From positions 8,718 through 72,717 of the forward strand of contig SVTQ01000006.1 of NCBI GenBank assembly GCA_015063695.1: DNA of 64,000 nt, in the 5' to 3' direction. The translations under genes and the position numbers were made by a program. Below the pieces are notes generated by a model. The model was not told the origin of the DNA. It did not search any database and saw nothing but the letters and a program-made list of their open reading frames with translations. The DNA is from Oscillospiraceae bacterium. Lineage in GTDB: Bacteria; Bacillota; Clostridia; Oscillospirales; CAG-272. Shown here one piece after another: positions 8,595-59,037 of the stretch. The first letter of the stretch is position 1. Each line of letters opens with the position of its first letter.

Positions 8595-10010
8595 ATGGAC
8601 GATAAAAAATTTGAGCTTGAGGAAAAAAACCTTGTTGAGTTTAAGACAACATTTAAAGGCTACAGTATTCCCGAAGTAAATGAATATATTGCGGCCCAGA
8701 GAGCCGAGCTTGAGGATATCCGTTCCGAAAACGCAGAGCTTTACAGAAAAATAGAGAAGCTTACCCGCCGTCTTGAAAAGCTGAAGACGGAAGAGGCAGA
8801 AAGAAACAAGCAGCTTGACAGCACCAGGGCTGAGGCTGACAGAATAATCAGAGAAGCAAAGAAAAAAGCGGCTCAGGAGCTTCTGCGCGCGGGAAGACAG
8901 CGCTCACGTATGGTTGCCGAAATGACCGAGCAGGTTGACGAGCAGAAACGTCTTTATCAAGCAACGAAGATAGAGGCGGCAAAATTCCGAAGCGCGCTCT
9001 TCGCTCTTTACAGAGACCATATCGAGCTTATCAACGCCATGTCTGAAGCATCGGGAGCTTTTGACGAGGACAGCACGTCGGGTATTACCGAAGAGGACCT
9101 TAAGAATATGGAAAAGCTTCTGGAAACAGAAGTGGAAGAATCTGAATACGAATCGGTGGATCAGTCTGCCTTTGCGCCTTCGGACGGACAGACACTTCTT
9201 GTTGAAGCTTTTTCCGATACCGCTTCCATAACTATCCCTCCGTCTTCAAGAGCAAAAGGCAAGAAGTCGGATAAAAAAGCGAAAAACGCAAAAATCGAGG
9301 AATTCGTAAAGGATTTTGAGAAGGAAGCCCTTGAAGAATCTGTTCCCGTTGAAGATTTTTTTAAGTCCGACCTTGAAAACGTCGAAGCTGAAGAAGCTCC
9401 CTCCGAATTCGCAGAAACTTTTGAAGAAGAGACAGCGGTATCTGAAGCTTTCGACAGTGACGCTGAGGGAGAGCTCTATACGGAAGCAACCTTTGATGAC
9501 GAGGACGAGCTTTTAGAAGAAAGTGCGGATGCGCTAAATGCAGACCCTGCCTTCGTTATCACCGAGGAAGATCTTGACGAGTTTACAAATCCGGACGGCA
9601 GAGAAATGGAATATGACAGTCCCGTGTCCGTTGACAGCGTGTTCAGAAAGAGCGCTTATGATGACAGGGATTTCGAAAAGCTTTACGGCGAGACACCAAC
9701 CGAAGCGGAAGAACCCGAGGTGCCCGCAGAACCGGAAGCTTTCGAAGAAGAAGTAAAGCCCAGAACTAAAAACGGCTACGGATTTAAGGTGAACATGGAA
9801 AAGAGAGTCGATCCCGAGGACGACAGTAACGAATTTTATATGGAAAACGATGCTGAATTTGACCCTGCCGCAACGGACGGAGTACCTACGGGAACGGTAG
9901 GAGCCTTCGGTGTCACTTCCAAAGCGCCTTCAACGGAGCGCCGTTGGAGAGTTAAAAAGAGTAAAAGCCTGACTGACGAATTTGACGTAATAAAGGCTGA
10001 AGAGGAATAA
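8595..10010 (+). CDS. divIVA: DivIVA domain protein with long acidic C-terminal extension
   Basis: N-terminal FKTTFKGYSIPEVNEYI followed by coiled coil (the DivIVA signature). About 300 aa of Glu/Asp-rich tail follows. Confidence 0.8.
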   Translation: MDDKKFELEEKNLVEFKTTFKGYSIPEVNEYIAAQRAELEDIRSENAELYRKIEKLTRRLEKLKTEEAERNKQLDSTRAEADRIIREAKKKAAQELLRAGRQRSRMVAEMTEQVDEQKRLYQATKIEAAKFRSALFALYRDHIELINAMSEASGAFDEDSTSGITEEDLKNMEKLLETEVEESEYESVDQSAFAPSDGQTLLVEAFSDTASITIPPSSRAKGKKSDKKAKNAKIEEFVKDFEKEALEESVPVEDFFKSDLENVEAEEAPSEFAETFEEETAVSEAFDSDAEGELYTEATFDDEDELLEESADALNADPAFVITEEDLDEFTNPDGREMEYDSPVSVDSVFRKSAYDDRDFEKLYGETPTEAEEPEVPAEPEAFEEEVKPRTKNGYGFKVNMEKRVDPEDDSNEFYMENDAEFDPAATDGVPTGTVGAFGVTSKAPSTERRWRVKKSKSLTDEFDVIKAEEE

Positions 10011-21004: not shown

Positions 21005-21667
21005 TTAGTCCTGAAGGTTGCGTTTGCACCACTCAAACAGGTCGGAAAAAGCTTTTTCAAAATCATAATCGCTGTTTTCAGAAAGCTCCGTTGCCGTTTC
21101 AAGGATTTTTTTGTCCTCATTTTCCAGATGCTCTGCAATAACGGCTTTTGTGGGATAGAATACACCGTCTTTCAGATAATAAATACTTTGAAGTATAAAG
21201 AAAACGCCTTTATAGGTAAAAGGAAGGGTCTCCACATTGCTTTTTTTGTCGGAGTGAATATAGCGGTGGCAAAGTTCGTGATATATGTTTCCAACGCTCT
21301 GTTTTATAAAGTTTTTTACGTCTTCTTTGGAATATTCGGGAACAAAGTTCGAAAGCTTCCCGAAAAAATCTTTGGTGCCATGAATAAAATTACACATTTC
21401 GAGGGGATTCCAGTTTGCCATATCACTTCTGCCGCAGATAAATCCGCAAGCTTTATCCGAAAAAGGAAGGCGGTTTATAATTGATTTGTAAGTTTCAAGA
21501 TCTTTTACCGTCAGATTATCAAGAATTACGACAACGTCAATGTCGCTCTTTTCCGTAGCTTCTCCTCGCAGATGACTTCCCTGAAGCCCGAGGAATAAAA
21601 ATCTTTCCCCGAATTCTGTTTTCAGAGCTTCTGTTAAATCTTTTATGTAGGTGTCTATTTTGAACAT
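21005..21667 (-). CDS. nucleotidyltransferase-domain protein (KNTase/ANT-like two-domain architecture)
   Basis: LGLQGSHLRGEATEKSDIDVVVIL is the GS-x(n)-DxD minimal nucleotidyltransferase motif. The C-terminal half is helical. Confidence 0.6.
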   Translation of the reverse strand: MFKIDTYIKDLTEALKTEFGERFLFLGLQGSHLRGEATEKSDIDVVVILDNLTVKDLETYKSIINRLPFSDKACGFICGRSDMANWNPLEMCNFIHGTKDFFGKLSNFVPEYSKEDVKNFIKQSVGNIYHELCHRYIHSDKKSNVETLPFTYKGVFFILQSIYYLKDGVFYPTKAVIAEHLENEDKKILETATELSENSDYDFEKAFSDLFEWCKRNLQD

Positions 21668-21691
21668 TTTGTATCTCTCTTGCGGTTTTGA

Positions 21692-22180
21692 TTATTTTTG
21701 ATATTTGTTTTCTAAATCTTCGAAATTGCCTTTAAAATGGAAACAGTCTCCGTCTTTGTTGTGATAAACAAGACCAAGATGCTCAAGGATATTTTGTGAT
21801 TTCAAATTGTTTTTATGGGCGTATGCTTCTACTGTTTTTGTGTTTTCGGGAAGCTTCGGTAAAAGCCACGTGTACAGAAGTCGAAAAACCCCGCTTTGGT
21901 GGTATTTCTTTTCTATTTGAATTTCTTCCATCATAAAGGTTCCGCCTGTAACGTAATACATGAAAAAGCCGATAAGTTCATCTTCATTGAAGATAAGAGC
22001 CATTTGACGTGCATCTTTTGACATTGCGGGATAAACTGCACAGTACCATTCCGAAAAGGCTTCTTCGTATGTTTTGCCGTCGGGAGCAATGGCCTCCATG
22101 TTTGCGCGGAGTATTTTAAAGCAATCGGGAAGATATTCTTCCACTCGGCTTTTGTCGGCGAATTTGAAATGAAAAGTCAT
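21692..22180 (-). CDS. GNAT-family N-acetyltransferase
   Basis: Start set to ATG 22180 after AAAGGAG; the upstream part of the ORF reads through repeat DNA. IQIEKKYHQSGVFRLL resembles motif A. About 162 aa. Confidence 0.55.
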   Translation of the reverse strand: MTFHFKFADKSRVEEYLPDCFKILRANMEAIAPDGKTYEEAFSEWYCAVYPAMSKDARQMALIFNEDELIGFFMYYVTGGTFMMEEIQIEKKYHQSGVFRLLYTWLLPKLPENTKTVEAYAHKNNLKSQNILEHLGLVYHNKDGDCFHFKGNFEDLENKYQK

Positions 22181-22197
22181 GGGGGCTCCTTTCGAAA

Positions 22198-22413
22198 GAG
22201 ATATCGAAATGTTATCTCGAGAGTTATCAACGTCGTAAGACGTGTATATCATCAAGGCGATAGCCTTGCATATCATCAAAGCAATGCTTTGTATATCATC
22301 ACTTGCGAAAGCTTTAGATACACGCCAAGGTGTGATGAGATACAACAGCGGCAATGCCGCTGTTGATGATATGCACGCTGTGCGTGATGATATGCCACCT
22401 GCTTCGCAAGTGG
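22198..22413. repeat. nested palindromic motif/hairpin array A (G[T/C]ATATCATCA x3 direct, TGATGA[T/G]AT[A/G]C x3 inverted)
   Basis: Direct copies lie at 22244-54, 22268-78 and 22291-301. Inverted copies lie at 22333-43, 22364-74 and 22385-95. Unique mini-hairpins sit between copies: AAGGC-GATA-GCCTT, AAAGC-AAT-GCTTT, AACAGCGGC-AAT-GCCGCTGTT and CACGC-TGT-GCGTG. Confidence 0.8.
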
Positions 22414-22449
22414 ATAAAAAATCCCATTCTCTTTCGAGAATGGGATTTT
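22414..22449 (-). terminator. terminator directly after tRNA-Arg
   Basis: AAAAATCCCATTCTC-TTTC-GAGAATGGGATTTTT hairpin followed by a T-run on the minus strand. Confidence 0.8.
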
Positions 22450-22525
22450 TGGCGCGCCCTGCAGGATTCGAACCTGCGGCCTACCGGTTCGTAGCCGGGC
22501 ACTCTATCCACTGAGCTAAGGGCGC
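22450..22525 (-). tRNA. tRNA-Arg (anticodon ACG), CCA encoded
   Basis: The reverse complement GCGCCCTTAGCTCAGTGGATAGAGTGCCCGGCTACGAACCGGTAGGCCGCAGGTTCGAATCCTGCAGGGCGCGCCA folds as a cloverleaf. It has a 7-bp acceptor stem, anticodon loop CTACGAA and T-loop GGTTCGAATCC. Confidence 0.9.
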
Positions 22526-58485: not shown

Positions 58486-58845
58486 TTATGATTGTACCGC
58501 TTTTTTCTTCGCGGTGGTAACTGATGCAATCAATTTTCTTCTTATTGTACCGCATTTATTGATCAGGTTTTTATATGTATAATCATTGATTTTCTCTTTG
58601 CGTAACAACAATTCCAACCAATACTCTGTTTCAAAGCTTTCTTTTAATGCAATTTCTAATTTGTTTATAAAATCTGCGGTGCTTTGAGCATACTTTGCTT
58701 CGTGGAGATTTGCTCCAATAGAGGAAGAACATCTTAGTAGTTGATTTACATAAACGGAACAACCCTTGATATTATCGCAAATATCAGAAACTTCTATAGC
58801 AAAGTTTATTGTTTGTTCTCTCAATGTGTTTTTGTAATTTTCCAT
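58486..58845 (-). CDS. four-helix-bundle protein (23S rRNA intervening-sequence protein family)
   Basis: ATG 58845 after AGGAGA. QLLRCSSSIGANLHEAKYAQSTADFINKLEIALKESFETEYWLELL is the family signature. Confidence 0.8.
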   Translation of the reverse strand: MENYKNTLREQTINFAIEVSDICDNIKGCSVYVNQLLRCSSSIGANLHEAKYAQSTADFINKLEIALKESFETEYWLELLLRKEKINDYTYKNLINKCGTIRRKLIASVTTAKKKAVQS

Positions 58846-58861
58846 AATGTAATCTCCTATG

Positions 58862-59037
58862 TCGATATACACGCTACGCGTGTTCGATATATTTTGCTTC
58901 GCAAAATTCGATATAAACTCACTCTGTTCGTTTTCGATATGATATAAATCTCGTTTCCGAAGGAAACATATCGAGTGCTTTGGCACATATCGAATCCGTC
59001 AGGATATATCGAAAATCTCGCAAGAGATTTATATCGA
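58862..59037. repeat. nested palindromic motif/hairpin array B (TTCGATAT x4 direct, ATATCGAA x4 inverted)
   Basis: Direct copies lie at 58862-69, 58883-92, 58907-16 and 58933-41. Inverted copies lie at 58967-74, 58987-95, 59004-13 and 59030-37. The central hairpin is GTTTCC-GAA-GGAAAC (58953-67). Unique mini-hairpins sit between copies: CACGC-TAC-GCGTG, TTTTGC-TTC-GCAAAA, GTGC-TTTG-GCAC, ATCC-GTCA-GGAT and AAATCTC-GCAA-GAGATTT. Confidence 0.85.

Follow-up and report, generated by a model that had tools for sequence, protein, structure and literature searches.

Comb A, a family of mini-hairpin arrays behind tRNA genes of gut and rumen Clostridia, and its possible role in cassette exchange

A 193-nt intergenic element, here termed comb A, lies between a tRNA-Arg gene and a GNAT acetyltransferase gene in a 64,000-nt stretch of an Oscillospiraceae genome (the window; positions 8,718 to 72,717 of contig SVTQ01000006.1, assembly GCA_015063695.1), and is well supported as one copy of a widespread, multi-copy and horizontally spread family of modular hairpin-array elements, which dock behind tRNA genes and stand at the head of lineage-specific gene cassettes. 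The family is previously undescribed, a literature search having returned no description of it. Its copies combine repeated short linkers, direct in one half and inverted in the other, with variable mini-hairpins whose paired positions change together and whose loop signature is mirrored between the two DNA strands. The reading that we favour, with a confidence that stops a little short of even, is that combs are folded-DNA attachment or exchange sites of cassettes in the flanks of tRNA genes, which also insulate and promote the cargo genes of these cassettes.

The comb A family in Clostridia

Copies of the element were sought with a k-mer screen of the 1.85-Mb source assembly (G000; 91% complete; C and L below denote contigs and public loci) and then with a covariance model, R1, built from seven of its own copies. 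The k-mer screen places the comb A arrangement at seven sites of the source genome, or about ten under looser criteria, and R1 recovers all own copies at 147–200 bits. The window copy occupies positions 22224–22416 on the minus strand (G000:C40:30941-31133, C40 being the window contig) and scores 163.8 bits (E = 1.5e-39). A pattern scan of public data yielded at least 119 stretches, nearly all from metagenome-assembled genomes (MAGs) of Acutalibacteraceae, Oscillospiraceae, "Eubacteriales" or Clostridia from ruminant and other guts; R1 identifies 59 copies in the first 80 public loci and 45 more in further loci, and the family-wide counts given below refer to the matches listed. With some ten copies in the source genome, more than 100 in other Clostridia MAGs and sibling combs carrying other linkers, the suggestion of the first-pass annotation that two such elements in the window belong to a family of structured elements, and are not chance, is supported. 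Within the window itself, the linker motif ATATCATCA occurs 40 times at no more than one mismatch against 12.6 expected, with six occurrences inside 150 nt, and the fold energy of comb A departs strongly from shuffled controls on both strands (z-scores of -6.7 for the minus and -5.8 for the plus strand). Density of the motif and z-scores alike far exceed expectation, and the element is therefore not a product of chance.

The distribution of the family is patchy. Comb A is present in nine of 41 relatives, yet in just two of eight congeners, and a class-wide sample reveals it in 12 of 401 genomes from at least eight families. The copies of the source genome share 82–90% identity with their nearest copy elsewhere, which lies behind a different tRNA, as against 79–83% among themselves. 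Comparison by blastn with plasmid and phage collections gave no comb A match, and the specific pattern, which catches 34 of 106 bacterial copies, had zero matches in IMG/VR; matches to a looser pattern there were considered as evidence of phage carriage and were all false when checked with the covariance model. An identity with a known Rfam family was likewise discarded, since the tRNA alone scores above its gathering threshold and the sub-threshold matches to Gut-1, C/D-box snoRNA (through UGAUGA) and miRNA families are due to chance or to architecture.

Local hairpins and mirrored loops

Read on the minus strand, comb A opens with TATCC and the hairpin hp0 (22395–22413), followed by C-ATATCATCA, hp1 (22374–22386), ATATCATCA, hp2 (22343–22365), ATCTCATCA, hp3, TGTAT and the central segment x (22300–22309). 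It continues after segment x with TGATGATAT, hp4 (22278–22290), TGATGATAT, hp5 (22254–22267), TGATGATAT, hp6 (22230–22243) and the terminal half-linker TTGATA (22225–22230), for which the family consensus is TTGATT. The three linkers of the 5' half, which span 22333–22393, are located at 22385–22393, 22364–22372 and 22333–22341, the last being the conserved ATCTCATCA variant, and the three inverted linkers of the 3' half (22230–22301) at 22293–22301, 22270–22278 and 22246–22254.

The first-pass annotation had described this arrangement as a comb-like nested palindrome between the tRNA-Arg terminator and the GNAT start, with three direct copies of G[T/C]ATATCATCA (22244, 22268 and 22291), three inverted copies (22333, 22364 and 22385) and unique perfect mini-hairpins as spacers. 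All six copies are present at that location, the one at 22333 with a single mismatch (TGATGAGATAC), and every spacer is a perfect mini-hairpin, with stems of 4–9 bp where 5–9 bp had been given. The long open reading frame (ORF) that seemed to extend the GNAT gene is, as proposed, the repeat read in frame, the 220-aa TTG-start ORF at 21692–22354 being the 162-aa GNAT protein extended. GATATCGAA (22199–22207), in contrast, which had been placed at the left edge of the element, falls outside it, in a separate leader hairpin (GAGATA..TATCTC, 22199–22219, minus strand) that separates comb A from the GNAT ribosome-binding site and that the family consensus does not include.

Comparison of copies separates the pairings that are maintained from those that are not. 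Across 86 distinct copies, 39 of the 43 pairs of the seven local hairpins change on both sides, with pairing kept in 97–99% of cells. The situation is different for the three long-range helices by which direct and inverted linkers would form a nested palindrome: their 26 pairs display none or one two-sided change, and their only variable positions are statistically independent, with 17–24% mismatches. Contingency tables return C:A at the long-range outer pair in 34 of 74 copies, with no association in any register, and the inner pair contains a conserved C-T mismatch. The long-range helices, devoid of covariation, were accordingly rejected, and the nested palindrome is inferred only from the inverted orientation of the linkers. 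The private GC end of the middle linker pair is not general either, as the variable base next to each motif does not covary with its presumed partner in 74–86 copies. What stands of the earlier description is the local hairpins and the pairing between CACTTGCGAA (22300–22309, segment x) and TTCGCAAGTG (22403–22412, the 5' arm and loop of hp0; inverted repeat I13). This complementarity covaries across at least six sequence classes: its perfect runs average 8.5 nt, as against 4.7 nt for mismatched controls. It is also a feature of sibling comb families; segment x either seals the 5' half into a domain or is a competitor of hp0.

The composition of the hairpins is equally constrained. Distinct hairpins contribute some 1,700 stem pairs, of which 99.2% are Watson-Crick, 0.5% G-T and 0.3% A-C, and nearly every loop is closed by C-G. 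Loops of the 5' half read GNA or GNNA on the tRNA-sense strand; those of the 3' half are the exact complements, TNC and TNNC, so that the G..A loops lie on the opposite strand, where the linker reads ATATCATCA. In the window copy, the 3'-half loops read AAT, GATA and GTAA on the plus strand, which makes them G..A-type where the linker is ATATCATCA. At all seven hairpin positions, the dominant loop classes of the ATATCATCA strand are C(GNA)G and C(GNNA)G. At the level of sequence, these loops correspond to the mini-hairpin DNA motif GCGNAGC/GCGNNAGC, defined by C-G closure of a GNA or GNNA loop with a sheared G-A pair, and three of its examples, CCGAAGG, GCGAAGC and GCGTTAGC, are found repeatedly, letter for letter, in comb A. 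Mini-hairpin DNA is extraordinarily stable as DNA, binds single-stranded-DNA-binding protein poorly and is known from single-strand initiation sites, such as the phage G4 and St-1 origins and the RSF1010 ssiA and ssiB sites on opposite strands, with CCGAAGG and GCGTTAGC among its examples (PMC13037366). Combs appear to share with these sites the same C-G-closed GNA and GNNA loops, as well as their use of both strands as an inverted pair. In contrast to the single or paired hairpins of phage and plasmid origins, combs are chromosomal arrays of three to four mini-hairpins per strand behind tRNA genes, with no replication genes nearby. Because the G..A loops are mirrored onto the ATATCATCA strand in both halves, both DNA strands are under the same single-strand constraint, which one transcript cannot explain.

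The family is also modular. Seventeen hairpin modules are found at two or more positions, and the number of units differs between copies, as the first-pass annotation had suggested might be the case between strains: 62 of 106 copies have a 3+3 arrangement, and 3+4, 4+3 and other arrangements occur. Such shuffling of modules and variation in unit number fits what crossovers at a repeated linker would produce. Half-combs that end after segment x are seen at G000:C39:84387-84508 and C3:31749-31963. A separate array at G000:C34:48827-49029, between a divergent gene start and another ORF, holds nine TGTATATCATCA linkers in a single orientation, each with one of four types of hairpin behind it, the types coming in an order that repeats, and shows that the linker-plus-hairpin unit can expand in tandem without the inverted half.

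tRNA 3' flanks and their cargo

Comb A copies are tied to the 3' ends of tRNA genes. Of 99 distinct copies, 56 lie 31–42 nt behind a tRNA, always on the same strand and covering 26 anticodon types, and most of the remainder follow a transfer-messenger RNA (tmRNA) or a short fragment ending in NCCA. A CCA end and an A-run precede a terminator in 83 of 101 copies, and the terminator layout is present in nearly all. A handful of terminator sequence classes is shared by combs that follow different tRNAs in different genomes, and an identical tRNA-Arg in the congener G006 carries a quite different terminator; the terminator therefore travels with the comb and not with the tRNA. Enrichment beside tRNA genes, proposed earlier as a check, is evident in the source genome, where 14 of 26 scorable tRNA 3' flanks contain a 7-mer in at least two direct and two inverted copies, as opposed to 85 of 5,000 random windows. 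Six of these 14 flanks hold comb A; the others have linkers AGCTAAA, GTGAAGT and TTATTCA, and two of the 14 are probably terminators only. As side observations, only 32 tRNA and tmRNA genes were recovered in the source genome, seven of them within about 120 nt of a contig end, and combs occupy contig ends on C14, C34/C16, C5 and C4; comb repeats evidently break MAG assemblies next to tRNA genes.

At the window locus, the docking point of comb A is a tRNA-Arg(ACG) gene with encoded CCA (22450–22525, minus strand; ARAGORN, Rfam tRNA 66.6 bits), for which the promoter scan gives a strong promoter, TTGACA-17-TATGAT (22575–22547, minus strand); gene and promoter are 93% identical to those of G006. 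A bidirectional intrinsic-terminator hairpin (22417–22450) directly follows, consisting of an A-run, a 10-bp G+C core and a T-run, with perfectly complementary 15-nt arms (22417–22431 and 22436–22450). Beyond comb A, a GGAG ribosome-binding site and an ATG at 22180 start the gene for the 162-aa GNAT acetyltransferase (21692–22180, minus strand; PF00583, 21 bits against a cut-off of 20.7), and a gene for a 220-aa nucleotidyltransferase follows (21005–21667, minus strand; PF01909, 30 bits). This pair of cargo genes (21005–22180) resembles small-molecule-modifying, for instance antibiotic-modifying, or toxin-antitoxin-like accessory genes.

Comparison with congeners shows the tRNA 3' flank to be a hot spot of gain, loss or replacement of combs and cargo, as both the tRNA-Arg and the icd-tRNA-Trp loci differ among them. 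In a global alignment of the tRNA-Arg locus, the source genome and G006 share the blocks 22592–22446 (93% identity) and from 20973 downward (84–87%), the latter being the promoter and gene of a 529-aa protein, and similarity in G006 ends 4 nt after the CCA. Between these blocks lie 1,472 lineage-specific bp in the source genome (20974–22445, minus strand: terminator, comb A and two genes), as against 222 bp in G006 (L197:3761-3982, G006:C56), which hold a different terminator and a small comb of six hairpins, without a cargo gene, whose linkers are of the ACTTCA/ATCGTT type (AACTTCATT/AATGAAGTT and AACATCGTT/AACGATGTT). At the icd-tRNA-Trp locus, the source genome has comb A and a four-helix-bundle gene, G006 is comb-free and the congener G005 has a comb with TGAAAT linkers. 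The comb-free G006 site after tRNA-Trp (G006:C30, L367:285-345) has its terminator within a long palindrome, GCCCCTGCCA...TGGCAGGGGC, which takes in the final 10 nt of the tRNA. Synteny through the upstream cofE-like gene was tried as well and set aside, no relative having a tRNA there, so that this flank has been rearranged. In metagenome run X1, one low-depth contig joins 20958 to 22587 with seven extra letters, a junction that would skip the tRNA-Arg gene, the comb and both cargo genes; given its A+T-rich flanks, this contig may be chimeric.

In about a third of copies, the terminal half-linker TTGATT is the -35 box of a cargo promoter: a TTGATT end followed 16–18 nt on by TATAAT, often as TGnTATAAT, is found in 32–41 of 102 copies (TTGAYN-N15-18-TANNNT or TATAAT). 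These copies have the comb flanked by the terminator on one side and by the cargo promoter on the other; the window copy has no -10 box after its TTGATA. The most frequent cargo, at 10 of about 50, is a 115-aa member of the Pfam family 23S_rRNA_IVP, a four-helix-bundle family that includes the Avd proteins of diversity-generating retroelements, with its start 42–46 nt after the comb. Other copies are followed by GNATs, XRE regulators, a UDG-family protein or membrane proteins, or by no cargo, as on C14 and C3. Tandem comb-cargo units, 0.8–1.6 kb apart, occur in L021, L066, L071, L061 and L010, with a cassette tail such as ..GCTGTAAACACA taking the place of the tRNA end. A conserved non-coding module is often seen after GTGATT-type comb ends and before the next comb or half-comb (G000:C39:83994-84605, the C14 and C34 contig ends, and C3:31963-32061); it comprises a hairpin with a loop (R)GAGTTCGAA(Y) like that of the tRNA T-loop, then ..ATATCTTTTTTGTAGCCCATAGACA, an A-run and a terminator, and may represent either the tail of a cassette or the degenerate 3' half of a tRNA.

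Four-helix-bundle genes are present in 25 of 41 relatives, including all nine that harbor comb A and 16 of the 32 others, and nearly always stand behind a terminator, a comb and a promoter, usually after a tRNA. Each subfamily is preceded by its own linkers, among them AATGATGTT, GTGATGTT, GTGAAGT, GTTATATT, ATGAAAT, ATGAATT and GTTATGA. Since these genes follow combs with differing linkers, comb A is one type within a superfamily of combs, which also includes the element B of the window, with TTCGATAT linkers. Element B (58528–59037; G000:C40:67245-67755) lies directly before another 23S_rRNA_IVP gene, whose product is 48% identical to the comb-A-linked one, and follows a protein-coding gene instead of a tRNA. 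Two more four-helix-bundle genes stand behind tRNAs at G000:C44:20899-21400 and C44:29388-30067, after direct and inverted TTATTCA/TGAATAA-type repeats with few or no hairpins, in what looks like a hairpin-poor variant of the comb layout.

The superfamily probably extends to the orphan Gut-1 motif. Gut-1 RNA (RF01706) was proposed as a non-coding RNA and is known from gut metagenomes only, without genomic context, tRNA link or cassette (PMC2864571). Its hairpins are, as in combs, separated by a short conserved linker (UGAAAU), and true TGAAAT combs occupy sibling sites after tRNA-Trp in G005 and before a four-helix-bundle gene in L216. Comb A itself differs from Gut-1 in its linkers, ATATCATCA/TGATGATAT, and reaches only 15.1 bits against a gathering threshold of 50 (E = 1.7–3.1), with two hairpins covered.

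Models for comb function

In the folded-DNA reading, mini-hairpin arrays with an invariant 9–12-nt linker would fold on each strand once the DNA becomes single-stranded or is extruded, and the folded array would offer a trans-acting enzyme a structured site for the insertion, exchange or shuffling of cassettes. The flanking terminator would insulate the cargo from transcription of the tRNA, and the last half-linker, TTGATT, would provide the -35 box of the cargo promoter. In this model, single-stranded DNA would be the active form of the comb, the comb would be a recombination site and an enzyme would act on it. A broader version, which is possible but rather doubtful, holds that gut and rumen Clostridia, a group without integrons, have a cassette system of their own, whose full set of parts would be docking at the CCA end of any tRNA or tmRNA, comb exchange, an enzyme in trans and an Avd-like partner. 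Here, mirrored single-stranded-DNA mini-hairpin arrays of many linker types, including Gut-1, would mediate the exchange, and the accessory partner that binds nucleic acid would usually be the Avd-like four-helix-bundle (23S_rRNA_IVP) protein.

Several results weigh against comb exchange as the function of these elements. No recombinase or transposase recurs within 4 kb of combs when the ORFs of 119 loci are clustered, the recurrent "proteins" there being combs or tRNAs read in frame, an ABC-F ATPase and XRE regulators. The one tyrosine recombinase of the source genome (PF00589, C34:25808-26335) is far from any comb, and the four Y1/RAYT-like genes of that genome (PF01797) have REP (repetitive extragenic palindromic) hairpins of their own, unrelated to the comb; as comb partners they were discarded, since comb motifs are absent from the flanks of all four. 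With no such enzyme near combs and unrelated candidates elsewhere, a mobilising enzyme, if there is one, must act in trans. No circular intermediate was found, nor any target-site duplication beyond the T-runs that belong to the terminator and the TTGATTT end, nor a clean empty site with both flanks conserved. The right-hand cassette boundary has no recognisable end structure, and the start of the variable segment at CCA could merely mark where tRNA conservation stops. Furthermore, gut metatranscriptome contigs contain comb modules at depths comparable to those of the neighbouring tRNA, in data without strand information, with depths summed over many organisms and with possible DNA carry-over, and the comb is probably transcribed, at least by read-through; one sequencing run of undefined kind covered GNAT alone. 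As the promoter scan detects no promoter between comb A and GNAT in the window copy, comb A may there form part of the GNAT mRNA leader, with GNAT expressed by read-through.

These last observations lead to the foremost rival explanation, in which the comb is a structured RNA within tRNA read-through transcripts or cargo leaders, acting as a processing, insulating or switch element, for instance by serving as a substrate of RNase III or by switching between hp0/x conformations, perhaps with the Avd-like protein bound to it. The fold energy of the minus strand, the covariation of both the local hairpins and the alternative hp0:x pairing, the lack of a promoter ahead of GNAT, the original proposal of Gut-1 as a non-coding RNA and the cUUCGg loops on the tRNA-sense strand of some sibling combs are all in line with such an RNA. 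The ratio of comb to four-helix-bundle depth, 39–115 in RNA runs against 10–14 in DNA runs, points the same way, subject to the missing strand information and possible carry-over of DNA in the former. We nevertheless consider a structured RNA somewhat unlikely: G-U pairs, at 0.5% of stem pairs, are almost absent, the loop signature of the 3' half is mirrored to the opposite strand, the long-range helices do not covary, and a strong terminator precedes the comb, with the cargo promoter located downstream of it in about a third of copies.

A second alternative sees in combs a selfish repeat akin to miniature inverted-repeat transposable elements (MITEs), made up of paired transposon ends, each with three binding sites, whose transposon is lost or acts in trans; the repeat would have accumulated behind tRNA terminators while unrelated rearrangements produced the differences in cargo. 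The patchy, multi-copy distribution, the cargo-free copies on C14 and C3 and the assembly breaks at contig ends are compatible with this proposal, as are the pseudo-symmetric ends (ATCCAAG.. / ..CTTGAT) and the 3+3 inverted 12-nt sites, reminiscent of Tn7 or Mu ends. It becomes improbable in view of the failure to find a target-site duplication or an autonomous partner, of a within-genome identity (79–83%) that implies no recent burst, and of the fixed orientation to the tRNA and the consistent 42–46-nt spacing to the four-helix-bundle gene; moreover, transposase sites in double-stranded DNA leave the variable, covarying palindromic spacers unexplained. The same spacers, which are always perfect palindromes with selected loop types and which binding to double-stranded DNA does not need, make it still less probable that the linkers are a double-stranded operator, iteron or centromere-like array with incidental spacers, at which a sequence-specific protein, possibly the four-helix-bundle one, would bind six linkers and control the adjacent cargo promoter; the invariant linkers, spaced 23–31 bp, direct then inverted and directly upstream of and overlapping the -35 box, their match to four-helix-bundle subfamilies and the presence of such genes in all nine comb A genomes would suit that arrangement, but most comb A copies have other cargo, and half-combs and a single-orientation nine-unit array exist.

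Interspersed repeats of the REP/BIME (bacterial interspersed mosaic element), BOX, Correia and MITE-like types are extragenic palindromes found near terminators; BOX elements are modular, with variable unit numbers, Correia elements can carry outward promoters, and REP/RAYT systems act or move through single-stranded-DNA hairpins. Combs share with them the interspersed palindromes near terminators, the modularity and the promoter part. In those families, however, the palindromes are conserved and the linkers vary, whereas comb linkers are invariant and the palindromes vary; combs also differ in their strict placement and orientation after the CCA end and in their association with cassettes. 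Unlike REP/BIME elements with their RAYT, which combine a conserved 20–40-nt palindrome bearing a 5' GTAG with a cognate Y1 transposase, comb A lacks a GTAG tetranucleotide, has variable palindromes and lacks a cognate Y1 gene.

Integron attC sites, for their part, are active as folded single-stranded DNA. The closest known systems to the folded-DNA reading are indeed attC gene cassettes and CALIN clusters, the latter, like combs, being without a neighbouring integrase (PMC4889954). In common with attC sites, combs are sequence-diverse, structure-conserved imperfect palindromes beside small, variable and often unrelated genes, which may form comparable cassette arrays, and join short conserved boxes to variable paired parts. 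The defining features of integrons are nonetheless lacking. No integron integrase or attI accompanies combs; the comb is 5' of its cargo and contributes a terminator and part of a promoter, whereas attC follows a promoterless ORF on its 3' side and promoters are rare in integron cassettes; a genome offers many docking sites at tRNA 3' ends instead of one attI; and six to eight mini-hairpins with repeated linkers replace the R''-L''/L'-R' boxes.

About half of the tRNA 3' flanks of the source genome hold some type of comb, and congeners differ in gene content there. Since comb-bearing tRNA flanks are hot spots of gene content, combs mark a route, major and not annotated until now, by which uncultured Clostridia of gut and rumen turn over their accessory genes. 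They also provide a genomic context for the orphan Gut-1 motif and for the widespread Avd-like 23S_rRNA_IVP proteins, represent a natural case of mini-hairpin DNA arrays, and explain many of the assembly breaks and spurious long ORFs beside tRNA genes in MAGs. The phylum to which these bacteria belong, the Firmicutes, has been reported to be without complete integrons (PMC4889954); if combs do head exchangeable cassettes, they would amount to an integron-like system where the phylum was supposed to have none.

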